64,000 nucleotides of DNA from an uncultured Gammaproteobacteria bacterium (GCA_964457465.1 CAYWEJ010000001.1:17991-81990); one strand, 5' to 3'. Positions 2,165 to 55,883 are shown, numbered from the stretch's first letter. The notes: generated by a model not told the origin, from the sequence alone. Made by a program: numbers and translations.

Positions 2165-2905
2165 TTGTGTATAATAAATACTGTGAAATTATCAATTATT
2201 ATTCCAGCATATAACGAGGAAAAGACAATCACATCAATTTTGGAAGAGGTGCAAAATGTCAAAATCGACTCAGTAGATAAAGAAATAATTGTAGTCAATG
2301 ATCACTCAACCGACAGTACATCTAAAATTTTGGAAAAAATAGCCAAAACTAATTCTGCAATTAAAGTTTTTAGCCACGAAATTAATAAAGGAAAGGGTGC
2401 AGCAGTAAGAACCGGTTTTGAAAAAGCAACTGGTGACTATGTGGTCATCCAAGATGCAGATATGGAGTATAGTCCAAGCTATCTTGTTAGTTTATTAAAA
2501 CCAATCGTTTCTGGAGAAGCTCAGGTAGTTTTTGGAACAAGGCTTAGGGAAATCCCTGACTTAGAAGGGCATGGAACAATGTCAAAGACCCGTTTCCTTT
2601 TACACTTTTTTGGAAATAGATTTTTAAGTCTGATTACAAGCATTCTTTACTTCCAATGGATAACAGATATGGAGACATGCTACAAGATCTTCCCACGTAT
2701 TTTTTTAGAAAAAGCAAATTTGTCAGGTGAAGGTTTTAATTTTGAGCCAGAAATTACAGCAAAACTTATTAAGGCAGGCTATAAGATAGTTGAATTACCA
2801 ATTAAGACAAAGCCACGAGGTTATAACGAAGGAAAAAAACTACAAACATTTCCAGAGGGTTTTATCGCTCTGTGGACTCTTTTTAAGTACCGGTTCGTAA
2901 ATTAG
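2165..2905 (+). CDS. GT2 polyprenol-phosphate sugar synthase, Dpm1/GtrB-like (soluble form); true start probably GTG 2183 (MKLSIIIPAYNEE...)
   Basis: Contains IIIPAYNEE, 'VVNDHSTDST', 'IQDADMEY' (DXD) and 'DMETCYKIFPR' (D-x-x-C-G/Y-x-K motif of the Dpm1/GtrB/ArnC family). Its stop is one nucleotide before the start of an ArnT/PMT-like gene. Confidence 0.7.
   Translation: MCIINTVKLSIIIPAYNEEKTITSILEEVQNVKIDSVDKEIIVVNDHSTDSTSKILEKIAKTNSAIKVFSHEINKGKGAAVRTGFEKATGDYVVIQDADMEYSPSYLVSLLKPIVSGEAQVVFGTRLREIPDLEGHGTMSKTRFLLHFFGNRFLSLITSILYFQWITDMETCYKIFPRIFLEKANLSGEGFNFEPEITAKLIKAGYKIVELPIKTKPRGYNEGKKLQTFPEGFIALWTLFKYRFVN
2167..2175 (+). promoter_or_regulatory. extended -10 element (TGtgTATAAT) about 7 nt upstream of the in-frame GTG at 2183; putative leaderless promoter
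   Basis: Read directly: tgtgtataat. It lies inside the N-terminal extension that the ORF track assigns from TTG 2165. Confidence 0.35.
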
Positions 2906-2906
2906 T

Positions 2907-4586
2907 ATGTCAAAAGTGCTCGATTTTATTACAGAATGGTCGATTGGTATCTTAATAGCATTATTTCTATTAGCATCTTTTCTAAGATTGAATAGCCTTG
3001 ACCAAATCCCTGTTGGGCTCCACGCTGATGAAGCATACTTTGGATATAATGCTTACTCGATTGCTCAGACGCTAAGAGATGCTACTGGTAATTTTTTACC
3101 CATACATCTCCAGTCATTTTTATATAGCCCAGCAGGCTATTCATACATTGTTATTCCGAGTATGTATATTTTTGATCTCACGCCATTTGCAGTAAGATTG
3201 CCAGGGGTAATTTTTGGAATAGCAACGGTGGTTTTTTCATACTTTTTTGTCATGAAGCTATGCAAAAGCTTAAAATATAGCAAGCTTTTAGGACTCGCAG
3301 TCTGTGCGCTCCTTGCTATCTCTCCTTGGCATATCAATCTATCCCGAGCGTCAGCAGAGAATGTTGTCGTAGTTTTTCTTATAATGTGCGGTGTTTATTT
3401 TTACATTAAATGGGTCGACAAGCAGAAGAATTTGTTCATCATTCTTTCATTGGTTTTTTTCATAACGACATACTTTTTTTATCAAGCTCCTAGGGCTTTT
3501 CTTCCTCTTTTCTTACCAATTCTCTTTTTACTTTATAGACCAAGAGTCTCATTGAGAAAAGTTCTCATTATGGTAGGGCTATATGTATTTTGCATAGCTC
3601 TTCCTGTGTTTTTGATAATTTCATCTGACACTCTTTCGTATAGATTAAAAATGCTTTCTGTATTTAATTCCCCTAGAACAAATGCATTACTTTTTGAATC
3701 AATCACAGAGGACGGACATAGGCAGAGTCCAGTCCTGGAAGTCAGACTATTTCATAACAAAGTTGCAGGATATGCATCAGAGATATTTAGTGGCTATATG
3801 AAATATTTTTCGTATGACTTTTTATTTACAGACCAAAACTTTCCAGACAGGTATCGAGTTCCAAACATGGGCTTGCTTTACATTTTTGAATTACCATTTC
3901 TTATTGCTGGAATATACTTTATTTTTAGATATCGTGAGAAATTTGGGTATCTTTCTTTAGCTTGGGTTGCAATAGGCTTTATTGGTGCGTCTTTGACCTA
4001 CGATGATATCCCAAACCTTCAGAGAACCATTATTGTTTTTCCAGCACTGCATATTATTATTGGCTATGGAGTAATTAATGTATTCAGGTTTACCCCCAGG
4101 AAATATTTGCCTGCTTTTGGGATCATTTTTTCTTTAGTCGTACTATATTTCTTTAGCTATTATCTTCATCAATATTATGTTCATCAATTTGTTCGTAAGC
4201 CAATTTATCGTCAGCAGGGTTACAAAGAGCTTGTAGAGTCTTTGCAAATTGAGATTCCAAACTACAAGAGTTTTAATATTACTTCAAATGAATCGTCTCC
4301 ACTTATTATGTTTCTTTTTTACCTAAAATATGATCCGAAAGTATTTCAAAAATTTATTACAACTCAAAAACATAATTATCTTACAGAAGACTTTGGAAAA
4401 ATTAGTTTTGATCGATATAATTTTGTTCCCGAGGAATGCCCAAGTCATAAAAATACTGATCCGCTCATACTTTCTGTAGATTTAGGAAGATGCGGGGTGT
4501 CTGATAAAAAAAACATTGTCAAAGAAATCACCAGAAGCGATGGAAGTGTTGTTTTTAGGATTGTCAAGACAAATCGTAAGGAATAA
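2907..4586 (+). CDS. ArnT/PMT-like GT-C glycosyltransferase (GT39/GT83-like), paralog 1
   Basis: 559 aa. N-terminal TM followed by a loop with 'GLHADEAYFGYNAYSI' (acidic DE motif), then 'AISPWHINLSRASAENV', many TMs, and a C-terminal soluble domain 'LFYLKYDPKVFQKF'. Three paralogs at 10758-15715 share all of these. Confidence 0.65.
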   Translation: MSKVLDFITEWSIGILIALFLLASFLRLNSLDQIPVGLHADEAYFGYNAYSIAQTLRDATGNFLPIHLQSFLYSPAGYSYIVIPSMYIFDLTPFAVRLPGVIFGIATVVFSYFFVMKLCKSLKYSKLLGLAVCALLAISPWHINLSRASAENVVVVFLIMCGVYFYIKWVDKQKNLFIILSLVFFITTYFFYQAPRAFLPLFLPILFLLYRPRVSLRKVLIMVGLYVFCIALPVFLIISSDTLSYRLKMLSVFNSPRTNALLFESITEDGHRQSPVLEVRLFHNKVAGYASEIFSGYMKYFSYDFLFTDQNFPDRYRVPNMGLLYIFELPFLIAGIYFIFRYREKFGYLSLAWVAIGFIGASLTYDDIPNLQRTIIVFPALHIIIGYGVINVFRFTPRKYLPAFGIIFSLVVLYFFSYYLHQYYVHQFVRKPIYRQQGYKELVESLQIEIPNYKSFNITSNESSPLIMFLFYLKYDPKVFQKFITTQKHNYLTEDFGKISFDRYNFVPEECPSHKNTDPLILSVDLGRCGVSDKKNIVKEITRSDGSVVFRIVKTNRKE

Positions 4587-4590
4587 AAAC

Positions 4591-5505
4591 ATGAAAAAAG
4601 TTGTTATTTCAATATTAGATTATAACGGGCAAGACAAGACAAATGCATGTTTAAAATCTCTTGAAGGACTTAGTCTTCCAGATATATCGCTTCGAGTTCT
4701 TGTTATTGATAACTATCCTGAGGGAAAATTTGTTTTGACTGCGAAATTACCTAAGCTTACAGTTGATATTATTAAGACTAAAGAAAATAAGGGTTTTGCG
4801 GGAGGACATAATGTTGGCTTTGATTTTGCAATGAAAAATGGAGCAGACTACGTTATTATTCTGAACAATGATACCTTTGTTGATAAAAACCTTGTTAAAG
4901 AGTTAGTAAGCTCAGCAGAAGAAGATAATAATAGAGGTGCAATTGTCCCAAAAATCTATTTTGCAAAAGGCCATGAATATCACAAAGATGCATACAAAAC
5001 AAATGAACTAGGAAAAGTATTTTGGTATGCTGGAGGAAATATCGATTGGGATAACATTAATGGTGTTCATCGTGGTGTTGATCAAGTTGATAGAGGCCAA
5101 TACAACACTGAAGAAGAGACCGAGCTCCTTACTGGATGCTGTGTGCTTTTTACCGCTGAGGTATTACGAAAAACGAAAGGATTTGATGAAAGATATTTTC
5201 TGTATTACGAAGATGCTGATCTAAATGAGCGACTCAAGGCTCTTGGCTATATCGTTTGGTATAACCCTAAGGCAGTCTTGTGGCACATTAATGCAGGTTC
5301 AACGGGAGGGTCTGGTTCAAAACTTCAAGACTATTTTATAAGCAGAAATCGTATGCTTTTTGGATCTAAATTTGCGAGAACAAGAACAAAAATTGCGCTT
5401 CTGCGAGAGAGTATGAGAATACTTGCATCTGGACGAGAATGGCAAAAAAAAGGTGTGATAGATTTTTATAAAAGAAAATTTGGTAAAGGAAGTTTCGCTT
5501 TATGA
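4591..5505 (+). CDS. GT2 family glycosyltransferase
   Basis: In-frame ATG 5 nt after the upstream stop. Contains 'VVISILDYNGQDKT', 'IDNYPEG', 'YYEDADL' (DXD) and a long C-terminal region typical of GT2 rhamnosyl-/galactosyl-transferase-like proteins. Confidence 0.7.
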   Translation: MKKVVISILDYNGQDKTNACLKSLEGLSLPDISLRVLVIDNYPEGKFVLTAKLPKLTVDIIKTKENKGFAGGHNVGFDFAMKNGADYVIILNNDTFVDKNLVKELVSSAEEDNNRGAIVPKIYFAKGHEYHKDAYKTNELGKVFWYAGGNIDWDNINGVHRGVDQVDRGQYNTEEETELLTGCCVLFTAEVLRKTKGFDERYFLYYEDADLNERLKALGYIVWYNPKAVLWHINAGSTGGSGSKLQDYFISRNRMLFGSKFARTRTKIALLRESMRILASGREWQKKGVIDFYKRKFGKGSFAL

Positions 5506-6251
5506 ATGATAAGATTACAGCCGTAATAATTGCAAAAAATGAAGAGGAGATGATAGGAGATTGCCTGAGATCTCTCTCATTTTGTGATGCTCTCATCGTT
5601 GTTGATAATTCGTCTAGTGATAATACAGTGGGAATTGCAAAAAAGGTGGGTGCGAAAATAATTACTGTTAAATCAGATAATCTTTCAGAATTGAGAAGCG
5701 CACCTTTAAAAAAAATATCAACAGAGTATGTGCTCTATATAGATGCAGATGAACGAGTAACAAAAGAGCTTGCAGATGAGATACTCGGAACTATCTCATC
5801 AGGAACAGATGTTGTAGCATTTTACCTTTTTCGTCAAAATTATTATTTTGGCAACCATCCATGGCCTAAAAAAGAGCGACTTGAGCGATTGTTTAAGACA
5901 GAAGCATTAAAAGGTTGGAGAGGGATTCTTCACGAATCACCTATTTTTTTGGGAGAAACAGGTGAATTTAGAAATCCATTACTTCACTATACTCATAGGA
6001 ATTTTTCCTCAATGGTGACAAAGACAAATGACTGGTCAGTAAAGGAAGCTGAGTTAAGATTTCAAGCTCATCATCCACCTATGAGTTGGTGGAGATTTCC
6101 ACGTGTGATGATAGGCGCATTTTTCCAATCGTATATCGGAAGCCAAGGCTACAAAGCGGGAATGGTCGGATTATTAGAAAGTATATATCAGGCTTTTAGT
6201 ATGTTTGTTACATACGCTAAATTATGGGAGCTGCAACAGAGAGAAAAGTAG
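5502..6251 (+). CDS. GT2 family glycosyltransferase (short WaaE/KdtX-like type)
   Basis: 'ITAVIIAKNEEEMIGDCL', 'IVVDNSSSDNTVGIAKKVGAKII' and 'YIDADERV'. ATGA overlap with the upstream gene. A paralog lies at 19556-20323. Confidence 0.7.
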   Translation: MNDKITAVIIAKNEEEMIGDCLRSLSFCDALIVVDNSSSDNTVGIAKKVGAKIITVKSDNLSELRSAPLKKISTEYVLYIDADERVTKELADEILGTISSGTDVVAFYLFRQNYYFGNHPWPKKERLERLFKTEALKGWRGILHESPIFLGETGEFRNPLLHYTHRNFSSMVTKTNDWSVKEAELRFQAHHPPMSWWRFPRVMIGAFFQSYIGSQGYKAGMVGLLESIYQAFSMFVTYAKLWELQQREK

Positions 6252-6252: not shown

Positions 6253-6492
6253 TTATTTAGAAGACTTTTTTAGTAGTTTTTTCCAGGATTTTATCTCTTC
6301 AATTGTTAACCTCTTTTTTGCAAATTTAAAAAGATAGATAATTTCAATAATTCCGATTGTGTTTATCACAAGAACTGCAACAAACCATATTTTTTGGTCA
6401 TTTTTACTTGCTCTCCATAGTGCAATCCCCTTCCAAACAAGTGACCAAAGTCCAATTATATAAAACCAGAACGGATAATTTACTGACGGCAT
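6253..6492 (-). CDS. small two-TM membrane protein of unknown function
   Basis: 79 aa: two hydrophobic helices with W/K-rich flanks and a Lys-rich tail. It is the only minus-strand ORF inside a + strand operon and fills a 295-bp gap. Confidence 0.3.
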   Translation of the reverse strand: MPSVNYPFWFYIIGLWSLVWKGIALWRASKNDQKIWFVAVLVINTIGIIEIIYLFKFAKKRLTIEEIKSWKKLLKKSSK

Positions 6493-6546: not shown

Positions 6547-7626
6547 ATGAAGATAGCAATTTTCGATCCATATCTGAATACAATGTCGGGAGGAGAGAAG
6601 TATATGTTGTCTCTTGCGTTTTGTTTAAAGGAGGCACATGACGTCTCAATCATGTGGGATAAGTCACCAAAAGATGAGATAGTATCTCTTGCACGAAAAA
6701 GATTCTCATATAATCTTGAAGAATTTACATTTGTGTCTTCGATTTTCACCTCACAATTATCTATGCTTGATAGATATAGAAAAAGTAAGGAATATGATGT
6801 CGTTATCTATCTAAGTGATGGGAGTATCCCAGTTTTAGCATGTAGTCTTATTATTCATTTTCAGTCCCCTATGCTTTGGGTGCGAGGTAGGAGTATAAAA
6901 AATAGACTCAAACTAAAAAAAGCAAAAGATATAATATGCAATTCTAGATTCACCAAAAAATACATTGATAAATCATTTGGAGTTAATAGCACTGTTTTGT
7001 ATCCGCCGGTATTGCTTCAAGGATCAGTGAGTAATAAAAAAGAGAATCTCATTCTAAATGTAGGTAGATTCGGAATTAACCATGCTGGGTCAAGCTACAA
7101 GAAACAAGACGTTTTAGCTCAGGCTTTTGAAAAAATGGCAAAAGAGAATAACACGAAAGATTGGAGATTAGTTTTTATTATGAGCACTTTGGAGCAGGAT
7201 AGAGATGCTCTTGATGATTTTATTACAAAGTATAAAAAAAATAATATGGATTTTGTCATTAATCCTGATAACGATACATTATGGGAATATTATAGAAAAG
7301 CTAAAATTTATTGGCATGGAGCTGGATATGGCGAAGATGTCGACTTACATCCTGATCGAGCAGAACATTTCGGCATTTCAACAGTTGAAGCTATGGGAAT
7401 GGGGGCAGTGCCTGTTGTGTTTAGCGCTGGAGGTCAAAAAGAAATAGTTGATCATCAGGTAAATGGTATACTGTGGAGTACGCTAGATGAGTTAGAGCGA
7501 TACACTCTTGATCTTATGGAGAGTCAAGAACTCTTGGACAAGTTGTCAAAAAAGTCGATTATAGATGCTCAAAAGTATTCACTTGACTCATTCTGTCAGC
7601 ATATTAATGAAATAATCAGACAATGA
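6547..7626 (+). CDS. GT4 family glycosyltransferase
   Basis: N-terminal 'MKIAIFDPY...SGGEKYM' and C-terminal 'FGISTVEAMGMGAVPVVFSAGGQKEIV' (GT4 E-x7-E region). Confidence 0.7.
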   Translation: MKIAIFDPYLNTMSGGEKYMLSLAFCLKEAHDVSIMWDKSPKDEIVSLARKRFSYNLEEFTFVSSIFTSQLSMLDRYRKSKEYDVVIYLSDGSIPVLACSLIIHFQSPMLWVRGRSIKNRLKLKKAKDIICNSRFTKKYIDKSFGVNSTVLYPPVLLQGSVSNKKENLILNVGRFGINHAGSSYKKQDVLAQAFEKMAKENNTKDWRLVFIMSTLEQDRDALDDFITKYKKNNMDFVINPDNDTLWEYYRKAKIYWHGAGYGEDVDLHPDRAEHFGISTVEAMGMGAVPVVFSAGGQKEIVDHQVNGILWSTLDELERYTLDLMESQELLDKLSKKSIIDAQKYSLDSFCQHINEIIRQ

Positions 7627-9842
7627 AAAAAGATAAGATTTGGATTGCTCTTTTTTTATTCGCTGTATTAGCTTTTTTTCATCCCTTGCTCTCAAGCAAA
7701 GTCCCGATCCCTACTGATGTATTAGTAAACTTCTTTTATCCATTAAGGGATTCATATACAACTGAATACCCAAGAGGAGTCCCCTATAAGAACCCACTTA
7801 TAAGTGATCCTGTTACTCAACAAATTCCATGGAGAGCCCTCTCTGTAGATCTCATCAAAAGCGGACAGTTGCCTTTATGGAACCCATATCAAATGGCAGG
7901 ATACCCACTATTTCAAAATATTCAAAGTGCATCATTCTATATTTTTAATATTTTCTTCTTTATTTTTCCATTTATTGAGTCGTGGTCTCTATACATAATT
8001 TTAGAAGTTGTGTTAGCAGGAATTTTTATGTATTTATACTTGAGAAATCAGAATCTTTCTGCTGCTGCCGCGTTTTTTGGTGGGATTACTTTTTCATTTT
8101 CAGGTTTTTTTATATCTTGGTTAGAGTGGGGAACAATTGGACACACAGCGCTCTGGGCTCCACTTATGTTGTTAAGCGTTGATCGATTTCTTACATCAAG
8201 AAGGCTCTATTGGCTTGTGATTTTAGTATTTTCTCTTGCTTGCGCATTACTTGCTGGACATTTACAGACGTTCATTTATATTTTCTTGACTCTTTGTGGT
8301 TATATAATATACCAGGCTATTTGTCATAAAAAAATAACTTCAATTTTTCCTGTTTTTCTATCTATCATATTATTTATTTTTATTACAGCAGTTTTATGGA
8401 TTCCACAGCTACAATTTGTTCTTCAATCAGCAAGGAATGTAGATCAGGATTGGCATAGAGCAGGATGGTTTATCCCAATTCAAAATATAGTGCAATTTAT
8501 AGGACCAAATTTTTTTGGTAATCCAGCAACAGGAAATTATTGGGGATTATGGAACTATGGTGAATTTGTTGGTTATGTTGGGATTGCGCCATTGCTTTTT
8601 GCCATCTTGGCCTTGTGGAAAAAAGTAAGCGGTTATCTTTTTTGGTTTGTATTACTTGCCTTTGTTTTTCTATTTGCTTATGACAATCCTATTTCGCATA
8701 TTCCTTTTCAGCTATCTTTACCATTTATTGCCTCAACCCAGCCGACGCGATTAATTTTTTTAGCAGATCTCGCATTAAGTATTTTAGCAGCAAAAGGTTT
8801 AGAAAATTTTATGAGAGAGAAAAAAAACATCCTTCAGCCATTTATTTTGTTCTCAATATTATTTTTAGGAATATTTCTTTATGGTTTTATAGGGGTAAAA
8901 CTGCAAGTAATTTCTGCTGAGAATTTTAGAATCGCGTTTAAAAATCTTATAGTTCCTTTCATCTTATTTTTTGCAATTACAAGCGTATTAATTGTTAAAA
9001 AATGCATCAAAAAAATTCATTCCAATATATTTGTAATTTTTATAATTTTTTTGACAGTATTTGACCTTTTGTATTTTGCTCAAAAATATACAGTATTTTC
9101 GAATAAAGAATATTTTTATCCGAAAACAAAGATAATTAATTATTTAACCTCACAAAAAGATATATTTAGAGTAATGACCACAGATAGAAGCATTCTACAT
9201 CCAAATATATCAACCTTTTATAGAATACAAAGCGTAGATGGCTACGACCCGCTTTATCTGCAGCGATTTGGTGAATTTATGACTGCAGTTGATAGAGATC
9301 TACCTGACATAAGTGGACCTTTTGGCTTTAACAGAATAGTCCACAAAGATTATAAAGAATCTTCATTTTATAATCTCCTTGGTGTGAAGTATATATTGTC
9401 GTTAACAGATATAACGGAAAAGAATCTACGAAAAGTTTATCAAGAAGGTGAGACAAGAGTATATGAGAACGTAAACGTTTTTCCAAGAGTATTTTTTGTA
9501 GGTAGTGTTAAAAAAGCGTCTAGTAAAAATGAAGCAATTACTATGCTCTTTGAGCATAAATCTGATCTTTATAAAACTGCGATAGTGGAGAATACGCATC
9601 TACAAGATACAAATTTTTCAATTGGTGAAGTGACTATTTTAAAGTATTCTGAGAACAAAATAGTCATTAAAACTAAAAACAATGGAGAAGGATTTTTGGT
9701 TCTGACAGATGCATATTATCCTTCGTGGTCAGTTAGTATCGATGGAAAGAAACAGACGATAGTTCTTACAGATTTTACGTTTAGAGGAGTGGTTGTCCCC
9801 AAAGGCGATCATAAGGTAGAATTCAAGAATAATCTTATATGA
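7623..9842 (+). CDS. YfhO-like polytopic membrane protein (GT-C-type candidate)
   Basis: 739 aa with about 13 or more TM helices. C-terminal domain 'FLVLTDAYYPSWSVSIDGKKQTI...FRGVVVPKGDHKVEFKN' carries the shared YfhO-like motif. ATGA overlap upstream. Confidence 0.5.
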   Translation: MKKDKIWIALFLFAVLAFFHPLLSSKVPIPTDVLVNFFYPLRDSYTTEYPRGVPYKNPLISDPVTQQIPWRALSVDLIKSGQLPLWNPYQMAGYPLFQNIQSASFYIFNIFFFIFPFIESWSLYIILEVVLAGIFMYLYLRNQNLSAAAAFFGGITFSFSGFFISWLEWGTIGHTALWAPLMLLSVDRFLTSRRLYWLVILVFSLACALLAGHLQTFIYIFLTLCGYIIYQAICHKKITSIFPVFLSIILFIFITAVLWIPQLQFVLQSARNVDQDWHRAGWFIPIQNIVQFIGPNFFGNPATGNYWGLWNYGEFVGYVGIAPLLFAILALWKKVSGYLFWFVLLAFVFLFAYDNPISHIPFQLSLPFIASTQPTRLIFLADLALSILAAKGLENFMREKKNILQPFILFSILFLGIFLYGFIGVKLQVISAENFRIAFKNLIVPFILFFAITSVLIVKKCIKKIHSNIFVIFIIFLTVFDLLYFAQKYTVFSNKEYFYPKTKIINYLTSQKDIFRVMTTDRSILHPNISTFYRIQSVDGYDPLYLQRFGEFMTAVDRDLPDISGPFGFNRIVHKDYKESSFYNLLGVKYILSLTDITEKNLRKVYQEGETRVYENVNVFPRVFFVGSVKKASSKNEAITMLFEHKSDLYKTAIVENTHLQDTNFSIGEVTILKYSENKIVIKTKNNGEGFLVLTDAYYPSWSVSIDGKKQTIVLTDFTFRGVVVPKGDHKVEFKNNLI

Positions 9843-12473: not shown

Positions 12474-12494
12474 TTATTGGTATACTGAAATTGT

Positions 12495-42930: not shown

Positions 42931-42939
42931 AAACGTTTA

Positions 42940-43149
42940 ATGAAACCACAAGACCTTATTTTTTTAAGTATTATGTTATTATTGCTTTTTAGTAAAAATC
43001 ACAAAATATTTGCTGCACTTGCTATTGGGTTGTTGATAATTGCTATACCTCTTTTTGAATTCTGGAAATTTTTTACTGCAGAGCGCATGGTGTTGTATTC
43101 TGCAATTTGCATCGTTATCTCAGTTATATTTCTTCAAAAAAAGAAATAG
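42940..43149 (+). CDS. small two-TM membrane protein of unknown function
   Basis: 69 aa, hydrophobic, directly after the GtrB-like gene. Confidence 0.3.
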   Translation: MKPQDLIFLSIMLLLLFSKNHKIFAALAIGLLIIAIPLFEFWKFFTAERMVLYSAICIVISVIFLQKKK

Positions 43150-43153
43150 TATT

Positions 43154-44817: not shown

Positions 44818-44818
44818 T

Positions 44819-49200: not shown

Positions 49201-49334
49201 CTCTTTTAATGGTAAAGAATGATCCTGTTCGTATAAAGGCATTTAAGTTCCAAAAGGACGGCTCTTTGGTTGAGATAAATCTACCAATACCTACTACTAC
49301 CACCGTAACAACGGTAAATTCTTATGCGAAATAA
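46257..49334 (+). CDS. fusion protein: N-terminal Wzy_C (O-antigen ligase / PglL-like) domain plus a second polytopic GT-C-like domain and a C-terminal soluble domain (1025 aa)
   Basis: The N-terminal half has 'TFAGHYDLAAYLIL', 'MTASRVSFAVYLVS' and 'LGSGYGSISLATDNSFLRMLGETGLLGF', which match the conserved loop motifs of the O-antigen ligase/polymerase family. The C-terminal half begins with the acidic loop 'FAGDDFTWLRW' and has about 10 more TM helices. Confidence 0.55.
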   Translation: MKIISYIKNNFLLLLTLFFLAFIPLYPKLPLLDIKHTWVYIRIEDVLVAFAWGVFFVSYFRRKATLKTPLTLPIAVFWAIGALATLSGVIFIFPRLEGVFPNLAFLSFLRRVEYLSLFFLAFSSIKNKNAINPIVTTLSLTLSAVFIYGIGQRMWGFPAFLTMNEEFAKGIPLRLSALARIPSTFAGHYDLAAYLILLIPIMGSMIFGYKKWYLKIIFFLLGVGGLILLLMTASRVSFAVYLVSVAFLLILQKQKKYIIPVFILSILLLKSFTGLSQRFSQTFTQVDLIVDSRTGKAIGIASEIGGDSITIEDKQSTGENLPAGSKYINFPSSQGQQLDSQIVYKKLKPGGEGEEIITKAGKVIVKKAFAYDVSFTTRFQGEWPRAIEAFKRNILLGSGYGSISLATDNSFLRMLGETGLLGFFSFVLIFIFIAIYLFRIVDDIDDKRIRALVYGVLAGSFGLALNAILIDVYEASKVAFVLWTVVGATLGLAKLYQKKDIKYFVEMKRIFTSTPALIVIIVVAGFLFFSRSLSNYFAGDDFTWLRWAADCHRLLSSTEQCSSIFSTISHYFSHSEGFFYRPGTRSYFLLAYPVFELFPLPFHVISLLLHLSATLFVFFILKKLLQHTLLGFVGAIFFLFLSIHAEAVYWISVTGHLIATNFIFMSFLFFMYWVETKKKFLFIFSSFAVMIATFFHEFGTIGSFLLIAYDLIYLTPSVKNLFRKWYYLLLILPVVMYYVLRTQASSVWFQGDYSYNFSMLPLNVLGNSIGYLITSILGPVFIPSYSAIRLYSGQHIGASVIVALALCIALAFIGYRNKEKISKTSWKSLFLGAALFIIPLSPFLGLGNLSPRYAYTGSIGVVFILAYLMKGLLMTKTKRRKVLVGGLVIISSLFILFHIKQLDKSNNEWRKAGEITNSALVGINYAYVVNSTLQPGSTFYFVDVPIKYADAWVFPQGLEDPLWFSFQNTAPQIKNASSEKEALLMVKNDPVRIKAFKFQKDGSLVEINLPIPTTTTVTTVNSYAK

Positions 49335-50757
49335 TAGTAAGTTCTTTTTGTTGATACTAATGCTTTTCTTTGGTCTTTTTGTAAGGCTTTATGAATTCCA
49401 TAAACCTATCGCTGACTGGCATAGTTGGAGGCAGGCAGATACAGCATCTGTATCAAGGAATTTTACTGAGAAAGGTGTTGATATGCTCCATCCTACTTTT
49501 GGTGATATATCAAACGTTCCATCAGGGAGAGATAATCCGAACGGTTATCGCTTTGTTGAGTTTCCTATCTATAACCTTTTTCAAGCCACTTTATTTAATG
49601 TTTTGGGACATTTCACACTTGAAGAGTGGGGAAGATTAGTTAGTATTTTTTCGTCACTATTTGCAGGATATTTCCTTTATCTTATCGTTAAGAAGTATTC
49701 TGGTGAGCGGATTGGATTATCAGTTTTGTTTTTTTATCTATTTGTTCCGTTTAATATCTATTATAGTCGGACAATCCTTCCCGACCCCTCAATGGTAATG
49801 GCTATCTTAGGAGGAATTTATTTTTTTGGTCTTTGGGTAGATTCTAAAACTAAAAGTATATTATTTTTTATTCTAGCAGCTGTGTTTACAGGTGCGGCAA
49901 TTTTAATAAAACCCTATGCACTTTTTTATATTTTTGTGTTTTTCTCAATAACAGCTTCTAAACAATTGGAAATACTAAAGAATAAAAAACTCCTTATTTT
50001 TGGAGCAACTGTAATTGCACCATTTCTGTTTTGGAGATTGTGGATGCTTCAGTACCCGGAAGGTATTCCTGCAAGTAATTGGCTTTTTAACGGGAACGGC
50101 ATTCGATTCAAGCCATCTTATTTTCGTTGGATTGTTTATGAAAGATTAGTGAAGCTTATTTGTGGTTTTGCCGGTGTAGTTTTTTTAATTAAAGGAATTT
50201 ATGAAGTCTTAAGAGAAAAGAAAATCCAATTATACTCATCATTTATTCTTAGTGCCTTTATGTATCTTATTGTTGTTGCAACTGGAAATGTACAGCACGA
50301 TTATTATCAAATTGTCATTATGCCTTCGATTGCAATATTGTTAGGATTGGGTTTCTCAGCGTTAACATCCTTAAGAGCTTTGCAGCGGTTGGCACTTGGA
50401 TGGTTACTTGCAGTTATTATTACAATATTCTCTTTCTTCTTTGCTTGGGAAGAGGTCAAAGAATATTATTACATAAATAACCCATCTATCGTTGAGGCTG
50501 GGCGTGCAGTCGATAGGCTAACTCCAAAAAACTCATTGATAATTGCTAGTTATAATGGCGATACCTCATTTTTATACCATACAAATAGAAGCGGATGGGC
50601 TAGTTTTCAAAATTCAATCCCAGAGCTGATCAAGAAGGGGGCAGACTATCTTGTTTTCGCAAATCCAAATGAATCAGAGTTAAATTTCGCTTCAGAATAT
50701 AAAATTGTAGAGCAGAAAAAAAACTACATAATATACGATCTTCATCAGAAACCATGA
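49324..50757 (+). CDS. polytopic membrane protein, ArnT/PMT-like (GT-C-like candidate)
   Basis: 477 aa. The first loop has 'ADWHSWRQADTASVSRNF', followed by about 11 TM helices and a short soluble C-terminus. Confidence 0.45.
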   Translation: MRNNSKFFLLILMLFFGLFVRLYEFHKPIADWHSWRQADTASVSRNFTEKGVDMLHPTFGDISNVPSGRDNPNGYRFVEFPIYNLFQATLFNVLGHFTLEEWGRLVSIFSSLFAGYFLYLIVKKYSGERIGLSVLFFYLFVPFNIYYSRTILPDPSMVMAILGGIYFFGLWVDSKTKSILFFILAAVFTGAAILIKPYALFYIFVFFSITASKQLEILKNKKLLIFGATVIAPFLFWRLWMLQYPEGIPASNWLFNGNGIRFKPSYFRWIVYERLVKLICGFAGVVFLIKGIYEVLREKKIQLYSSFILSAFMYLIVVATGNVQHDYYQIVIMPSIAILLGLGFSALTSLRALQRLALGWLLAVIITIFSFFFAWEEVKEYYYINNPSIVEAGRAVDRLTPKNSLIIASYNGDTSFLYHTNRSGWASFQNSIPELIKKGADYLVFANPNESELNFASEYKIVEQKKNYIIYDLHQKP

Positions 50758-51944
50758 AAATACTTGTTGTTTCTTCATATCTACCTTACCCTTTAATAAA
50801 TGGTGGGAATATTCGTCTCTATAATCTTCTGAAATTTCTTCAAAAAAATCACGAGATCACTCTTGTCTGTGAGAAAAGACCATCACAAAATATAAGCGAT
50901 ATAAAGGAAGTCGAAAAAGTTTGTTATAAGGTTTTTACAGTTGATCGTAAAAAGCAGTGGTCTGCAAGCAATATACTCAAGACAGGTTTCTCTTTTGATT
51001 CTTTTCTTATAACCGGACACAAACTTGATGAAATGTCTAGCATTATTCATGAGTTGTTAGCTCATGAAACATTTGATGCGATCCATGTTGAAACATTTTA
51101 TGTTTTTCAAAACATTCCGAACACATCTATCCCTGTCGTTCTTGTTGAGCATAATGTTGAATATCTTGTTTATGAAAGATTTAGGGAAAAAGCATTCTCA
51201 CTTATGAAACCTTTATTAAAGATAGATGTTCAAAAAATTAAATATGCCGAAATTGCAGCATGGAAAAGAGCAGATGTTGTAGTGGCAGTATCTGAAAACG
51301 AAAAAAAAATAATAGGAGAGAAGTGTAGTTTTGTTGTTCCAAACGGAGTTGATACAAAAACTTTTACTTTAAAAAAAATTCAGGAAGGCAAAGAAGATGA
51401 AAAAAAGAAAATTCTTTATATAGGAGACTATACATGGATTCAGAATCGAGACGCAGTAGCTTATATTATTAAGGAAATTTGGCCTCATATTAAAAAAGAA
51501 CTTGCTTGCACTCTTTGGATTGTTGGAAAAAATATGCCAGCAGGGTTTAAGGATTTGGCTAAGAACGATCATGATATTTTTTTTGATGATACTAATCCTG
51601 ATACTGCAGCAGAAATCTTTACAAAGGCTGATATACTTTTGGCACCTAAGCGTGTTGGAGGAGGTACAAGTTACAAAATTATTGAGTCACTTGCTGTTGG
51701 CACACCGGTAGTTACAAATTCATTTGGGCTTGAAGGGTTAGATATTGTAAAAAATGAAGAAATTATCGTTGAGGATAAGCCTGAAAATTTAGCGAAAGAG
51801 ACAGTCAGAGTGCTAAGGCAAAAAAAACAATATGTAGAGCTTTCAAGAAATGGCAGAAGAGCCATTGAGAAAAAGTATGACTGGCACGTAATTGCAAATC
51901 AGATGGATAAAGTCTATCAATCTGTAGTAAAAAAATCATTATGA
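50754..51944 (+). CDS. GT4 family glycosyltransferase
   Basis: 'MKILVVSSYLPYPLINGGNIR' and 'VGGGTSYKIIESLAVGTPVV'. Confidence 0.7.
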   Translation: MKILVVSSYLPYPLINGGNIRLYNLLKFLQKNHEITLVCEKRPSQNISDIKEVEKVCYKVFTVDRKKQWSASNILKTGFSFDSFLITGHKLDEMSSIIHELLAHETFDAIHVETFYVFQNIPNTSIPVVLVEHNVEYLVYERFREKAFSLMKPLLKIDVQKIKYAEIAAWKRADVVVAVSENEKKIIGEKCSFVVPNGVDTKTFTLKKIQEGKEDEKKKILYIGDYTWIQNRDAVAYIIKEIWPHIKKELACTLWIVGKNMPAGFKDLAKNDHDIFFDDTNPDTAAEIFTKADILLAPKRVGGGTSYKIIESLAVGTPVVTNSFGLEGLDIVKNEEIIVEDKPENLAKETVRVLRQKKQYVELSRNGRRAIEKKYDWHVIANQMDKVYQSVVKKSL

Positions 51945-53053
51945 GAATCGGAATTGATGCGAGATTTTGGAACGAAACAGGAGTTGGCAGGTATATTAAA
52001 AACTTGATTCTTGTTTTGGAAAAAATTGATAAGAACAATTCCTATGTTATTTTCACCTTGCCAAAGAACTTTGAAGGAATTAAGAGCGTAATTAATAGTC
52101 CACGTTTTGAAATAAAAAGTGCTGCTGTTCCATGGCATTCATTTAGAGAGCAGTACCAGTTCTCAAAGATTATTGATAAAGAAAAACTTGATCTTATGCA
52201 TTTTCCTTATTTTTCGGTCCCGCTATTTTATACAAGGCCATTTATCATTACCATTCACGATCTCATCCTGCATCATTTTTCAACAGGCGAGGCTACAACG
52301 TTGCCGATACCATTATATAGAGCTAAGTTATTAGCATATAAATATATCATTGCAAAGGTAGCAAAGAAATCTAGGAAGATTATAACTGTTTCACAAGCAA
52401 CAAAGGATGAAATAGTTGATCATTTGTCGATAAGTCCTGAAAAAATATCGGTAATTTATGAAGGAGTTGACGATGCTTTGATCACGCCCAACCAAGATAA
52501 AAAAAACTCTAAGAAGTTTTTACTTCATGTTGGCAATGTATACCCTCACAAGAATATAGATCGTCTCATTGATGCATTTATTCGCGCAGACTTACATGAT
52601 GTTGATTTATTATTTGTTGGAAAAAAAGATTACTTTATGAAGAAATTAGAGAAAAAAGTCAGCAGGATAGGAGTAAAGAACATACAGTTTTTAGGTTTTG
52701 TTGAAGATAAAGACCTTGCGTTACTTTACAGAAATGCTATTGCAACAATCGTGCCATCTCTCATGGAAGGCTTTGGTTTGCCTGTTCTTGAAGCTATGGC
52801 AAATAATTCTCTTGTAATTGCCTCGAATGTCCCTTCCTTAAAGGAGATCGCTAAGGATGGTGCGGTGTATATTGATCCTTTCAATATAGAGGAAATTTCT
52901 GATAAGATTCGAAGCATTGCTTATGCTGAAAAAAACTCTTTTACATCACTTAAAGAAAAAGGTCAAAAAATTGCAAAATCATACTCATGGGAAGATATGG
53001 GTAAACAAACACTAGAAATATATGAAAGTTGCCTTGGTATACGATCGGATTAA
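51941..53053 (+). CDS. GT4 family glycosyltransferase
   Basis: 'MRIGIDARFWNETGVGRY' and 'EGFGLPVLEAMANNSLVIAS'. Confidence 0.7.
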   Translation: MRIGIDARFWNETGVGRYIKNLILVLEKIDKNNSYVIFTLPKNFEGIKSVINSPRFEIKSAAVPWHSFREQYQFSKIIDKEKLDLMHFPYFSVPLFYTRPFIITIHDLILHHFSTGEATTLPIPLYRAKLLAYKYIIAKVAKKSRKIITVSQATKDEIVDHLSISPEKISVIYEGVDDALITPNQDKKNSKKFLLHVGNVYPHKNIDRLIDAFIRADLHDVDLLFVGKKDYFMKKLEKKVSRIGVKNIQFLGFVEDKDLALLYRNAIATIVPSLMEGFGLPVLEAMANNSLVIASNVPSLKEIAKDGAVYIDPFNIEEISDKIRSIAYAEKNSFTSLKEKGQKIAKSYSWEDMGKQTLEIYESCLGIRSD

Positions 53054-54119
53054 TAAATGGGGAGGAGCTGAGAGAGTGCTTCTTGCCTTGCATGAATTAT
53101 TTCCCGATGCTCCGCTTTTTACCTCGGTTCATAATAAGAAGAAAGCCAAGTGGATTAGAGATTTATCAATTACCCCATCTTTTCTTCAGGACTTTCCGTT
53201 CGCAAAAGATGCTCATGAACTTTATCCTCTTTTAATGCCTGCAGCATTTGAGCAGTTTAATCTTGATGATTTTGATGTCGTTATTTCAGTAACCAGCGAA
53301 TCTGCAAAAGGGATTATTACAAAACCTCACACAATTCACATTTGCTATTGTCTAACTCCTACTCGATATTTATGGAGTGGGTATGAAGAATATTTTAATA
53401 AAAAAGTTATTAGGTTTCTTTCGTATCCGGCTACATGGTATTTGAGAAAATGGGATAAAATTGCCTCAAAAAGACCTGATGTCTTTGTTGCAATTTCAGA
53501 AGAGGTCAATAGAAGAATAAAAACCTATTACCAGTTAGAATCAGAAATTATTCATCCTCCTGTAGATCTATTTTTACATAGACAGCAGAAAAAGACAGTG
53601 CAAAAAAAGAATTATTTTTTAGTAGTTTCTAGGCTCGTCTCTTATAAAAGAATTGATATTGCGATAGATTCATGCAATCAGCTAAAGATTCCTCTAAAGA
53701 TAGTTGGTGTAGGAAGTCAGTATCATGCCTTGAGAAAGAAGGCAGGTCCTACGATAGAGTTTTTAGGAGAAGTATCTGACGAGAAGTTAAGACTGCTATA
53801 TGAGGAGGCACAAGCACTTCTTTTCCCTGGCTTTGAAGATTTTGGGATAGTTATGGTTGAGGCGCTTGGTCATGGTACACCAGTAATCGCCTATAACAAA
53901 GGTGGGGCAAAAGATATTGTCACTCATAAAAAATCAGGTATTCTCTTCTCAGATCAAACAAGTAGATCATTGTCGCAAGCTATTGGAGAATTCAAAAAAT
54001 CGAATTTCAAAAGATCAGATTTATATAAAGATGCATTCCGATTTAAGAAAGAAATTTTTTTTAAAAAAATCTTAAAACTTGTCAACGACAGATTGCAAAA
54101 CTCATCAAAGAGATTATAA
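53022..54119 (+). CDS. GT4 family glycosyltransferase
   Basis: 'MKVALVYDRINKWGGAERV' and 'FEDFGIVMVEALGHGTPVIAY'. Overlaps the upstream gene by 32 nt in a different frame. Confidence 0.65.
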   Translation: MKVALVYDRINKWGGAERVLLALHELFPDAPLFTSVHNKKKAKWIRDLSITPSFLQDFPFAKDAHELYPLLMPAAFEQFNLDDFDVVISVTSESAKGIITKPHTIHICYCLTPTRYLWSGYEEYFNKKVIRFLSYPATWYLRKWDKIASKRPDVFVAISEEVNRRIKTYYQLESEIIHPPVDLFLHRQQKKTVQKKNYFLVVSRLVSYKRIDIAIDSCNQLKIPLKIVGVGSQYHALRKKAGPTIEFLGEVSDEKLRLLYEEAQALLFPGFEDFGIVMVEALGHGTPVIAYNKGGAKDIVTHKKSGILFSDQTSRSLSQAIGEFKKSNFKRSDLYKDAFRFKKEIFFKKILKLVNDRLQNSSKRL

Positions 54120-54132
54120 TAATAATGGATTT

Positions 54133-55215
54133 ATGAAAATTCTTATTTTTGCCGGTGGAGTTGGCTCAAGACTTTGGCCTTTGTCGAGAAAAAACACACC
54201 TAAGCAGTTTGGCCAAATAATTGGTGATAAATCCACTCTTCAACAGACGATTGATAGATTAAGTCCTGAATTTAGTCCAGAAGATATTTATATTGCAACA
54301 GGTATTCAATATAAAGATACTGTTACTGCTCAGCTTAACAAAATTCCGGAGGAAAATTTTATTTTTGAACCTACTATGAGGGATGTCGGTCCGGCAATCG
54401 GTCTCAATGCATTTTTACTTGCCAAATTGCATCCTGACGAACCTATTGCAATTCTTTGGAGTGATCATATGGTAAAAAATCACGTTATGTTTCGACATGT
54501 ACTGAGGCTGGCTGAGGAAAGTATTACGAAATATGATGCAAATTTTGTTTTTATAGGACAGGAGCCACGATTTGCAAATCAAAATTTAGGATGGATTCAG
54601 CTTGGAGAAAAGATTAAGGAGGAGAATGGTGCTGAAATTTACGAATTCAATAAGCTTCTTTATAGGCCGAAACTTGAACAAGCTGAAGATTATTTCTCCT
54701 CTGAAAATTATGTATGGAACTTAGGCTACTTCGTAACTACACCACGATTTTTAGTCTCGTTATTTCAAGAACATGCACCGGAAATGTACGAAAGATTACT
54801 AGAGATTCAGCAGGCATATCAGACACCCGAATTTGAGTCTGTTGTTCAAGATATATACCCTACCCTTGAAAAAATTAGCTTTGACGATGCGATTCTGGTC
54901 AAGATGTCATCAAGAAATGTGTTTGTTATTTCTACTGATCTTGGCTGGAGCGATATTGGAGCTTGGGATGCGCTTAAAGAGGCATTAGCAGAATCTTCTG
55001 AGGAAAATATCACAAAAGGTAAAGTGCTTTTGGAGGACACAAGAGATTCCCTTGTTTTTAATTATACTGACCAGCTATCAGTAGGTATAGATCTTGCAGA
55101 AATGTTAGTTATTAATACTGATGATGTATTATTGGTTTGTCCAAAAAGTTCAGTTCCGAAAATAAAGAAGTTAGTTGAGAATTTGAAAGGTACTTCTCAT
55201 GAACATTTAGCATAG
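54133..55215 (+). CDS. manC: mannose-1-phosphate guanylyltransferase-like sugar nucleotidyltransferase
   Basis: In-frame ATG. 'MKILIFAGGVGSRLWPLSRKNTPKQF' is a classic ManC/GMP N-terminus. About 360 aa. Confidence 0.7.
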   Translation: MKILIFAGGVGSRLWPLSRKNTPKQFGQIIGDKSTLQQTIDRLSPEFSPEDIYIATGIQYKDTVTAQLNKIPEENFIFEPTMRDVGPAIGLNAFLLAKLHPDEPIAILWSDHMVKNHVMFRHVLRLAEESITKYDANFVFIGQEPRFANQNLGWIQLGEKIKEENGAEIYEFNKLLYRPKLEQAEDYFSSENYVWNLGYFVTTPRFLVSLFQEHAPEMYERLLEIQQAYQTPEFESVVQDIYPTLEKISFDDAILVKMSSRNVFVISTDLGWSDIGAWDALKEALAESSEENITKGKVLLEDTRDSLVFNYTDQLSVGIDLAEMLVINTDDVLLVCPKSSVPKIKKLVENLKGTSHEHLA

Positions 55216-55217
55216 CT

Positions 55218-55883
55218 ATGCCATACGTAGAAATTAAAAAAAGTAAGTGGCATGAGTTTGCGAAGAGGTTTATTGATATAGCTGCAGCCCTCGTAATTCT
55301 GTTGTTATTTCTTCCGATTATCATAGCAGTTGCAGTTGCAATAAAAGTTGATTCTCAAGGCCCTGTATTAGCAGACACTCCAGAAAGAGTTGGCAAGAAT
55401 GGAAGACTTTTTAAAATGTTTAAATTTCGTTCAATGATACCTAATGCACACGAAATTTTACGAAAAGATCCTCAGTTTGCAGCCCTCTATGATCAATATA
55501 AGAAAGGTAGCTATAAACTAAAAAATGACCCACGAATTACCAGGGTAGGTCGATTTATCAGAAAGCACTCATTAGATGAAGTGCCTCAGTTTATTAATGT
55601 TCTCAGGGGGGATATGAGTATTGTTGGGCCAAGAGCTTATTATCCTGATGAGCTTCGTGAGCAACAAAAAAAGTATCCGGACACACAGGATGCAGTTAAG
55701 ATAGTGCTATCAGTAAGGCCAGGAATTACAGGATACTGGCAGGTTTCTGGGAGAAGTGAGATTAATTTTGACAAGAGAATTGAGATGGATGCCGACTATG
55801 TAAGAAAAAGATCAATACTTTACGATTTGATGATTATTTTTCTTACTCCTGGTGCGATGCTAACAGGAAAAGGTGCAAGGTAA
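55218..55883 (+). CDS. small (PglC/WbaP C-domain type) polyprenyl-phosphate hexose-1-phosphate transferase: the initiating phosphoglycosyltransferase
   Basis: Single N-terminal TM helix, then 'LFKMFKFRSM' and 'VRPGITGYWQVSGRSE' (bacterial sugar transferase signature). Confidence 0.8.
   Translation: MPYVEIKKSKWHEFAKRFIDIAAALVILLLFLPIIIAVAVAIKVDSQGPVLADTPERVGKNGRLFKMFKFRSMIPNAHEILRKDPQFAALYDQYKKGSYKLKNDPRITRVGRFIRKHSLDEVPQFINVLRGDMSIVGPRAYYPDELREQQKKYPDTQDAVKIVLSVRPGITGYWQVSGRSEINFDKRIEMDADYVRKRSILYDLMIIFLTPGAMLTGKGAR

Follow-up and report, generated by a model that had tools for sequence, protein, structure and literature searches.

In multi-component glycosylation systems a membrane-anchored GT-A enzyme makes a polyprenyl-phosphate-linked sugar, a flippase moves it and a C-type glycosyltransferase (GT-C) adds it on the outside (PMC8035078; PMC11127046). 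Such glycosylation is established for the wall polymers of Gram-positive bacteria (PMC8035078) and also for O-antigen systems (PMC11127046). The described system that is closest in scale to the locus reported here is the assembly of arabinogalactan and of lipomannan and lipoarabinomannan (LM/LAM) in mycobacteria and corynebacteria (EmbA/B/C, AftA-D, MptA/B, PimE, Ppm1 and the synthesis of decaprenyl-phosphate-arabinose, DPA), where a cytoplasmic lipid-linked primer is extended outside by many GT-Cs that use polyprenyl-phosphate monosaccharides. The present locus lies in a stretch of 64,000 nt (CAYWEJ010000001.1:17991-81990 of assembly GCA_964457465.1; hereafter the window), in which positions 2165-55883 are filled by a nearly gap-free run of glycan-assembly genes. 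We propose that it is the principal envelope-glycan assembly locus of its host and that it combines a Wzx/Wzy-type pathway with a battery of GT-Cs fed by polyprenyl-phosphate-sugar synthases; the probability of this reading is, in our estimate, about 0.7. To our knowledge, the GT-C density of the locus is otherwise approached only by mycobacterial cell-wall clusters.

Domains were called by Pfam scans of all 51 open reading frames (ORFs) of the window with the curated cut-offs and by NCBIfam with its equivalog cut-offs. Transmembrane (TM) segments were predicted by a Kyte-Doolittle hydropathy scan, and profile-profile comparisons are given as hhalign probabilities. The span comprised 42 non-nested ORFs of at least 100 aa, a 79-aa DUF5652 gene and a 69-aa membrane ORF, which by the ORF listing and Pfam amounts to ~44 genes, fewer than the ~48 counted in an initial annotation of this DNA. 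The gene lengths summed to 53.2 kb (overlaps counted twice) against a span of 53.7 kb. The same annotation had described the block as co-oriented and translationally coupled, which held for the greater part of it: 41 genes were on the plus strand and three (the DUF5652 gene, g24 and g25) on the minus strand, and 25 of 41 junctions overlapped, none merely abutted and 37 were at most 50 nt long. The span also contained an inverted pair of genes and two longer gaps between genes (269-295 nt). By Pfam, the enzymes included nine GT2, seven GT4 and one GT4 fragment, and one phosphoglycosyl transferase (PGT), one Wzx and one Wzy_C protein. The sugar-modifying set consisted of two epimerase/dehydratases, a DegT and a GNAT enzyme, a hexapeptide acyltransferase, two methyltransferases and a ManC-like nucleotidyltransferase. 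GT-C-type enzymes were the dominant class, with 13 genes (~8,700 aa, roughly 49% of the span) and g24 as a probable 14th. This dominance had been claimed at the outset and was borne out and even strengthened. The large membrane proteins turned out to be polytopic proteins with GT-C-family matches rather than transporters, with 7-13 TM segments each and ~23 in g38.

Seven polytopic proteins exceeded the Pfam cut-offs of GT-C families (g04, g08, g10, g11, g12, g30 and g39), and four large ORFs and one ORF of 120 aa had no Pfam match even at E <= 10. The tandem ArnT/PMT-like paralogues g10-g12 were 36-37% identical to one another, with a WDE motif invariant in the first loop, and g04 was 26-28% identical to them over nearly its full length (E 1e-47 to 1e-56). 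Comparison of g16 with the PMT_2 paralogue profile gave a probability of 83.8% (E 8e-6, 329 columns), and its orthologue in a collinear relative (L012; related loci are designated by L numbers) showed a weak PMT_2 match. The GT-C_AftD match of g30 was shared by its 1124-aa orthologue in L018. The C-terminal 532 aa of g30 had no Pfam match and no detectable carbohydrate-binding module (CBM), and a sequence search of PDB chains with g30 gave no match. The family of g32 had 2,140 cluster representatives at E <= 1e-3, and its profile aligned with the N-terminal 550 aa of g30 (98.9%, E 1.6e-17, 484 columns) and with the YfhO-type g08 (84%). An NCBIfam scan of the membrane ORFs resulted in a weak MmpA match for g32 and otherwise in noise, and identical-protein look-ups for g28 and g30 returned no record. 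Orthology of g30 and g32 to AftD was rejected, as no CBMs and no DPA pathway were found in the window, and both are termed AftD-like only. Compared with its homologues g32 lacked an N-terminal TM segment of ~25 aa, the alignments starting near homologue residues 25-30, and one homologue (P0466) was a 1541-aa fusion.

The largest number of TM segments was predicted for g38. Its N-terminal part matched Wzy_C and its C-terminal module was related to the PMT_2 profile (93.4%, E 2.5e-7), with an invariant GDDFTW motif, so that g38 is a Wzy_C/GT-C fusion; orthologues with 34-78% identity were found in L003, L005 and L006. The second module of g38 also aligned with g28 (93.7%, E 1.8e-7, 165 columns including a YFxGD(D/E) motif), by which g28 is predicted to be a GT-C of the same subtype. 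In solved GT-C structures the catalytic base lies after TM1. An acidic motif soon after TM1 was present in 13 of the 14 polytopic candidates (in the second module of g38 it follows a module-internal helix), and these motifs were invariant in the family alignments wherever such alignments were built (Table 1).

Two genes are predicted to supply the GT-Cs with donors. g33 gave full-length NCBIfam alignments to ArnC (185 bits, residues 2-290 of the 316-position profile) and PgfS (151 bits), both below the equivalog cut-offs, and is a predicted polyprenyl-phosphate-sugar synthase. g03 aligned over near-full length with AglJ (119.6 bits), PpgS and a dolichyl-phosphate-hexose transferase, all far under the equivalog cut-offs, and is a candidate polyprenyl-phosphate-hexose synthase; g20, with weak near-full-length alignments to PpgS and ArnC, is possibly a third. 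As all synthase scores were under the equivalog cut-offs, the sugars cannot be named. By analogy, the GT-Cs would use polyprenyl-phosphate-linked donors outside the membrane, and the evidence that bears on this is their co-location with ArnC/GtrB- and DPM1-type synthases. Situated between g30 and g32 and near g33, the small membrane protein g31 (with a 122-aa counterpart in L018) is, by position, a candidate flippase for the polyprenyl-phosphate sugar; it may act in this way, or it may supply the missing helix or helices of g32 in trans.

Three components of a Wzx/Wzy pathway were present, namely an initiating PGT (g44), a flippase (g19) and a Wzy_C protein (g38). In NCBIfam the PGT matched EPS_sugtrans with 265.6 bits, aligned to the C-terminal catalytic domain. 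The nucleotidyltransferase g43 additionally gave a ManC_GMP_beta-helix score of 24.9 bits, under the 27-bit cut-off, and g22 and g23 together would yield an acetamido sugar. One PGT, one Wzx, one Wzy_C module and 16 Leloir glycosyltransferases indicate a single lipid-linked repeat-unit or oligosaccharide pathway, and 2-3 synthases with 13-14 GT-Cs indicate extensive extracytoplasmic elaboration. Beside the enzyme identities and folds, gene order, conservation and taxon, which were observed, we infer how the intermediates flow and what the donors and the acceptor are, as follows. The small PGT g44 would prime polyprenyl phosphate, and the ~16 Leloir GT2/GT4 enzymes would lengthen the unit on the cytoplasmic face with sugars supplied or modified by the ManC-like enzyme, the two epimerase/dehydratases, DegT, the GNAT and hexapeptide acyltransferases and the two methyltransferases. 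The unit would be flipped by Wzx g19 and polymerized or ligated by the Wzy_C module of g38. In parallel g33, g03 and perhaps g20 would load single sugars onto polyprenyl phosphate, and these lipid-linked monosaccharides would be flipped, possibly by the 4-TM protein g31. On the outer face the 13-14 GT-Cs, of PMT_2, YfhO and AftD-like types and of three Pfam-less families new to GT-C and known mainly from Candidate Phyla Radiation (CPR) genomes, would branch, extend or decorate the polymer or glycosylate envelope proteins.

The source organism is a Levybacteria-like CPR (Microgenomates) bacterium from groundwater. The closest match of the DUF4012 protein g45 was 88% identical and came from a Ca. 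Levyibacteriota groundwater metagenome-assembled genome (MAG), syntenic loci were found through g45 in four other Patescibacteria records, and a related Patescibacteria-group record consisted of one single 1.08-Mb contig. The small, AT-rich genome supposed initially is thus that of a CPR bacterium. L012 was collinear over g06-g21 with 55-79% protein identity and L009 over g07-g21 with 42-66% (Wzx g19 left out in both), L018 contained g17-g31 in the same order, and g37-g51 were in the same order in relatives. The order from g37/38 to g45, followed by RecO, GlyRS, MraZ and RsmH (the start of the dcw cluster), was conserved in four Patescibacteria records, g38-g45 was kept as a unit in four genomes, and the inverted g24-g25 pair recurred in L014 and L018. 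More distant Microgenomates were GT-C-rich as well: L010 contained MptA_B/GT87, PMT_2 and PTPS_related genes and two Wzx genes, and a Daviesbacteria locus contained PMT_2, PTPS_related and g24-family genes. Synteny across relatives shows that the locus is not confined to this genome and is conserved lineage-wide in Microgenomates. It is real and vertically conserved, a locus type and not a one-off. The conserved order and the flank next to RecO-GlyRS and MraZ-RsmH fit a core role in the envelope better than a mobile capsule island, and the dcw-adjacent place together with the vertical conservation favors a core envelope polymer.

That the window is an assembly or binning chimera, or that its large membrane proteins are transporters or permeases, could be suspected since it comes from a MAG, several large ORFs had no Pfam match and two related records carried discordant taxonomic titles. 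Logan contigs of run SRR8893623 matched window positions 10488-24489 at 99.98%, 38538-48664 at 99.95% and 58333-61938 at 100%, so that independent contigs covered 28 kb at 99.95-100% identity. In another sample, one contig reproduced the order of g17-g26 including the strand switch. In all, four independent contigs (three from one run and one from the other sample) matched the sequence or the gene order, and the gene order was repeated in at least four relatives. The GC content was 29-36% across the span (~33% in the window) and the GC skew was positive throughout, a uniformity that fits one genome. For the stretches of ~2.2-10.5 kb and 48.7-58.3 kb it is synteny alone that supports the joints. 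For the regions covered this explanation is refuted, and we consider it hardly credible overall.

Several genes varied within the conserved frame. The Wzx flippases of the window, L012 (18166-19431) and L009 (19054-20322) were 27-29% identical and the flanking collinear genes 41-79%, a contrast suggestive of allelic replacement or of diversifying selection acting on the flipped unit. L018 carried an extra 366-aa Mannosyl_trans2-like gene (GPI-mannosyltransferase-type GT-C; 16604-17704) and L009 two extra unannotated genes of 514 aa (14297-15841) and 380 aa (16850-17992); the GT-C content therefore varies inside a fixed scaffold. In the equivalent locus of Daviesbacteria (L015/L016, 12831-16881) an MBOAT and AlgX-like pair stood with a 487-aa protein without assignment. 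The pair suggests that in that lineage the exported polymer is O-acetylated; no MBOAT or AlgX-like gene was present in the window. Two related records, L003 (CAZHKZ010000002.1, titled 'uncultured Gammaproteobacteria') and L005 (DATIIS010000049.1, titled 'Candidatus Saccharimonadales'), showed full synteny of the Levybacteria-type locus and its housekeeping flank with 31-77% protein identity (mostly >=50%), and it is probable that their taxonomic labels are erroneous or that the bins were mis-assigned.

Such variation also bears on the question of whether the block comprises one pathway or several independent glycan pathways (e.g., for a wall polysaccharide, a lipoglycan and decoration modules) that accreted side by side, a reading that partly overlaps ours. 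A Wzx-GT2-GT4-DegT-GNAT-g24-methyltransferase sub-block recurs in Daviesbacteria, the g38-g45 unit is conserved separately in four genomes, gene content shifts within the frame (the additions in L018 and L009, and the two Wzx genes and MptA_B/GT87 of L010), and the two longer gaps and the inverted gene pair would be compatible with such an accretion. On the other hand, with a single PGT, Wzx and Wzy_C protein in 57 kb the window by itself offers no second complete lipid-linked pathway, collinearity across species extends through almost the full length, and most junctions overlap. We regard several accreted pathways as possible, although they are the less probable arrangement.

The three families g13, g14 and g24, none of which has a Pfam match, were resolved to different degrees. 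AlphaFold2 models of g13 and g14 were helical bundles; as modeled, g13 showed a GT-C fold and g14 a GT-C fold with a C-terminal domain of the oligosaccharyltransferase (OST) type. The GT-C enzymes listed, with figures that bear no label, were PglB (17.0), Pmt4 (16.9), ALG12 (16.2), AglB (15.3), AftA (15.2), ArnT (14.2) and AftD (12.6). Family profiles of g14, g24 and g32 had no sequence-level link to PDB chains, and hhalign found no relation between the g14 family and the PMT_2 paralogues. The g24 family comprised at least 399 homologues, with 50-77% identity among the 120 matches listed, and carried the invariant polar motifs FGVDVWTR..E and DGYFDYPP after TM1. Its last TM segment and C-terminal domain aligned with the equivalent region in the g14 family (70%, E 4e-5, 169 columns), and no relation was found by hhalign between g24 and the g13, PMT_2, g32 and g38 profiles. 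In Daviesbacteria g24 was co-directional within the sub-block mentioned above.

A number of findings weigh against the proposed reading. On the basis of its motifs and partial profile alignment g24 is no more than a probable 14th GT-C-like enzyme. The nearest structural neighbors of g14 were protein oligosaccharyltransferases, and g14 lacked an acidic motif after TM1, with conserved D142, H146 and NYHYW in a later loop instead; this leans to protein glycosylation for at least g14. Wzy_C occurs also in O-antigen ligases and in PglL/PilO-type protein O-oligosaccharyltransferases, and with a domain common to polymerases, ligases and protein transferases the role of g38 is ambiguous. Among the 51 ORFs of the window, Pfam detected no Wzz or other polysaccharide co-polymerase (PCP), no LCP ligase, no Wza and no ABC exporter. 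g31 was rejected as a member of the GtrA or SMR flippases, since no flippase family matched it at E <= 10 in Pfam, nor any in NCBIfam. Sigma-70 promoters and intrinsic terminators were as numerous as in shuffled sequence, and transcription units were undefinable. Finally, the 13-14 GT-Cs need not all serve one product, and we know of no glycan structure for any Microgenomates bacterium.

Part of this evidence is shared with the possibility that the locus serves mainly protein glycosylation (of an S-layer, pilins or envelope proteins), with the PMT_2 proteins as O-glycosyl (mannosyl) transferases, g14 in an OST-like role and the g38 Wzy_C module as a PglL-type O-oligosaccharyltransferase that would transfer the flipped lipid-linked glycan to proteins. 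The PMT and PMT_2 families are named for protein O-mannosyltransferases, Wzy_C is common to PglL/PilO transferases, the modeled fold of g14 is OST-like, the LCP wall-attachment ligase was missing from the window, and CPR bacteria are notable for type IV pili and sortase substrates (PMC6744442). PMT_2 is, however, also the ArnT family, and for enzymes of the AftD and YfhO types the only known acceptors are glycans or teichoic acids (PMC8035078). The 16 Leloir glycosyltransferases and the polymerase-type module suggest a long polymer, and no candidate acceptor protein was encoded in the window. g14 itself had neither the conserved acidic motif nor WWDYG; as WWDYG and DXD were missing from the family consensus, the invariant columns and the g14 sequence, it was not filed as a true OST. 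A locus devoted mainly to proteins is therefore, in our judgment, unlikely, and an envelope polymer assembled by the Wzx/Wzy-type pathway and elaborated by the GT-Cs is preferred. CPR bacteria are believed to have a Gram-positive-like envelope (PMC6744442), and in a cultured Saccharibacterium inactivated genes predicted for exopolysaccharide (EPS) were essential or caused a growth deficit in host co-culture (PMC10633639).

Table 1. Features of the glycan-assembly block and its flanks, by position in the window. Scores are from Pfam, enzyme names are predicted from family matches, and the last column gives the motif after the first TM segment.
Feature	Position	Strand	Predicted assignment	Motif
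g02	488-2095	-	535 aa; PTPS_related 38.4 bits (cut-off 26.4), YfhO C-terminal match under cut-off	HD
g03	2165-2905	+	Soluble GT2 of DPM1/AglJ/PpgS type; GT2 119.6 bits	
g04	2907-4586	+	GT-C of PMT/PMT_2 type; PMT 23.6 bits, marginal (cut-off 22.7)	HADE; WDE/ADE
g05, g06	4516-6251	+	Two GT2; 34 and 54 bits; g05 rhamnosyltransferase-like	
DUF5652 gene	6253-6492	-	79-aa membrane protein; DUF5652 81.7 bits	
g07	6547-7626	+	GT4; Glycos_transf_1 70 bits	
g08	7623-9842	+	GT-C of YfhO type, 739 aa; YfhO 95.6 bits (cut-off 28.5); 12 TM	TDV
g09	9839-10786	+	GT2; 86 bits	
g10, g11, g12	10758-15715 (starts 10758, 12495, 14114)	+	GT-C; PMT_2 38, 39 and 53 bits (cut-off 26.1)	WDE/ADE
g13	15657-17501	+	Unnamed CPR family; true start probably 15768, giving 577 aa	HEEYPDEFDN
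g14	17505-19514	+	Unnamed Microgenomates family; OST/ArnT-like C-terminal extracytoplasmic domain	
g15	19556-20323	+	GT2; 75.7 bits	
g16	20325-21785	+	Divergent PMT_2-like GT-C; PMT_2 22.5 bits, under cut-off (26.1)	FDKD
g17	22055-23029	+	NAD-dependent sugar epimerase/dehydratase; Epimerase 194, GDP_Man_Dehyd 189 bits	
g18	23071-24117	+	GT4; Glycos_transf_1 98.9 bits	
g19	24110-25372	+	Wzx-type flippase, sole in window; Polysacc_synt_3 52.4 bits; 12 TM	
g20, g21	25359-27250	+	GT2; GT4	
g22, g23	27202-29120	+	DegT-type sugar aminotransferase, DegT_DnrJ_EryC1 446 bits; GNAT N-acetyltransferase, Acetyltransf_10 56.8 bits	
g24	29130-30629	-	499-aa polytopic protein, unnamed highly conserved family; no Pfam, NCBIfam or PDB sequence match	GVDVW
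g25	30671-31630	-	NAD-dependent epimerase/reductase, RmlD-like; Epimerase 129.5, RmlD_sub_bind 85.6 bits	
g26, g27	31675-33404	+	S-adenosylmethionine (SAM) methyltransferase; GT2	
g28	33408-35624	+	738-aa GT-C; PMT_2 19.2 bits, E 0.0015, under cut-off	GDEW
g29	35676-36347	+	SAM methyltransferase; Methyltransf_23 66.7 bits	
g30	36344-39694	+	AftD-like GT-C, 1116 aa; GT-C_AftD 30.1 bits (cut-off 26), residues 39-584	GHDAG
g31	39691-40053	+	120 aa, 4 TM; overlaps both neighbors by 4 nt	
g32	40050-41951	+	AftD/YfhO-like GT-C, 633 aa; own sequence without Pfam match	GADW
g33	41992-42930	+	Membrane-anchored GT2 of ArnC/GtrB/PgfS type; two C-terminal TM	
69-aa ORF	42940-43149	+	Two TM; weak DUF7657 match, E 0.0033; status uncertain	
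g34	43154-43693	+	N-terminal Rossmann half of GT4 only, 179 aa; Glyco_transf_4 25.5 bits	
g35, g36, g37	43690-46260	+	GT4; hexapeptide acyltransferase; GT2	
g38	46257-49334	+	1025 aa; Wzy_C 33.8 bits (cut-off 31.7), residues 223-427; ~23 TM	GDDFTW (C-terminal half)
g39	49324-50757	+	GT-C of PMT_2 type; PMT_2 39.1 bits (cut-off 26.1)	ADW
g40, g41, g42	50754-54119	+	Three GT4, conserved in L003-L006	
g43	54079-55215	+	ManC-like sugar-1-phosphate nucleotidyltransferase; NTP_transferase 82 bits	
g44	55218-55883	+	Small monotopic PGT, sole in window; Bac_transf 208.8 bits	
g45	55898-57874	+	DUF4012 83.2 bits; one N-terminal TM, large extracytoplasmic part	
GATase gene	59931-61505	-	524 aa, GATase domain; between GlyRS and MraZ-RsmH	

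The core of the span delimited in the initial annotation stood, and its limits proved slightly narrow on both sides. On the left, g02 had 12 predicted TM segments with an HD motif after TM1 and a homologue in the equivalent locus L010, and is a candidate GT-C-like enzyme (PTPS_related/YfhO-like) just beyond these limits. On the right, the DUF4012 gene g45 adjoined the PGT in L003, L004, L005 and L006 and was syntenic in all relatives examined. g45 is a predicted auxiliary envelope protein whose place next to the PGT is conserved. Both CPR and Gram-positive bacteria are enriched in the DUF4012 family, which is also present in a Bifidobacterium EPS cluster (PMC6744442). The whole glycan gene block measures roughly 57 kb. 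No tRNA gene and no Rfam family was found when the window was scanned for them.

Three small or partial genes were observed inside the block. The DUF5652 gene is antisense to it, and an 85-aa counterpart was found at the same place (between a GT2 and a GT4) in L012 and L010. The 69-aa ORF fills a 223-nt gap between the ArnC-like g33 and the half-GT4 g34; it may encode a small membrane partner protein, or else be no gene. g34 itself lies directly upstream of a full-length GT4 with a 4-nt overlap, was called identically in the independent assembly L013, and represents a split enzyme or else a tandem duplicate that has decayed. Outside the block, the GATase gene was 51% identical in the closest relative (its neighbors 71-88%) and missing from three other syntenic loci; with a local GC of 0.41 against ~0.33 elsewhere it looks like a variable or acquired gene.

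The glycan block of ~57 kb corresponds to roughly 5% of the genome if this is ~1 Mb, a size inferred from the 1.08-Mb relative. The CPR envelope, the composition of which is essentially unknown, is the attachment and feeding interface of ultra-small, probably host-dependent bacteria. Of the 35 Microgenomates-enriched families reported by Méheust et al. 2019, which are mostly hypothetical, 14 were predicted membrane proteins. Three or four widespread 'hypothetical' membrane families, mainly of CPR bacteria, can now be annotated as GT-C glycosyltransferases, and the findings give concrete targets for structural work, heterologous assays, glycomics and cryo-electron tomography of CPR enrichments. 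A more far-reaching interpretation would be that Microgenomates assemble the greater part of the envelope glycan, or else a general layer of protein glycosylation, extracellularly from lipid-linked monosaccharides by means of a lineage-specific GT-C radiation including at least three new families (g13, g14 and g24), with g14 as a divergent OST-like protein glycosylator without WWDYG and the dcw-adjacent 55-kb locus as central as the mycobacterial arabinogalactan cluster. We mention it as a speculation that is more likely wrong than any of the readings of a functional glycan locus above.

The novelty of the locus lies in the scale and proportion of GT-Cs within one conserved locus of a roughly 1-Mb genome, in the Wzy_C and GT-C fusion of g38 and in that three to four families without a Pfam match (g13, g14, g32 and probably g24) are assigned to GT-C. 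As every mechanistic element has a precedent, it is neither a new kind of system nor a new mechanism. The ensemble had been suggested to be undescribed, and in full-text literature on GT-C-rich loci in CPR, Patescibacteria and Levybacteria, the coverage of which was incomplete, no specific description was found; this is absence of evidence rather than proof.

Compared with Wzx/Wzy loci for capsules, O-antigens and secondary cell-wall polysaccharides, the locus likewise clusters PGT, Wzx, Wzy_C, GT2/GT4 and nucleotide-sugar genes. It differs from them by a window without Wzz/PCP, tyrosine kinase, export or LCP components, by the fusion of the Wzy_C module to a GT-C module, and by being conserved and collinear across species and not hypervariable, with only Wzx strongly divergent. 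With the multi-component systems (GtrA/GtrB/GtrC, CsbB/GtcA/YfhO, GacI/J/K/L, ArnC/ArnE-F/ArnT and the GT136 pentofuranose systems) it would share the three-component logic, with g33 being ArnC/PgfS-like, g08 of YfhO type and g10-12 and g39 PMT_2/ArnT-like. Those systems pair one synthase with one GT-C for accessory decoration, whereas here 2-3 synthases stand against 13-14 GT-Cs, no monosaccharide flippase of the GtrA, SMR or MATE type was recognizable, and three GT-C families (g13, g14 and probably g24) lack a Pfam match and come mainly from CPR bacteria. g14 shares with STT3, AglB and PglB the modeled GT-C core and OST-type C-terminal domain, but has no WWDYG, no DXD after TM1 and no sequence match to PDB chains. 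In comparison with arabinogalactan and LM/LAM assembly, no sequence-level orthology was detected past the marginal AftD domain match; UbiA/DprE-type DPA synthesis, Emb proteins and mycolate genes were absent from the window, and the C-terminal half of g30 had no detectable CBM. In scale, the likeness is closest here. The genes of these mycobacterial and corynebacterial pathways similarly stand together with GT2 enzymes and a small protein of 4 TM segments, g30 exceeds the GT-C_AftD cut-off with g32 as its paralogue, and the relative L010 has MptA_B/GT87. Unlike the arabinogalactan system, the present locus has a Wzx/Wzy_C/PGT core, and its host is a roughly 1-Mb CPR bacterium in which GT-C genes make up about half of a 54-kb block.

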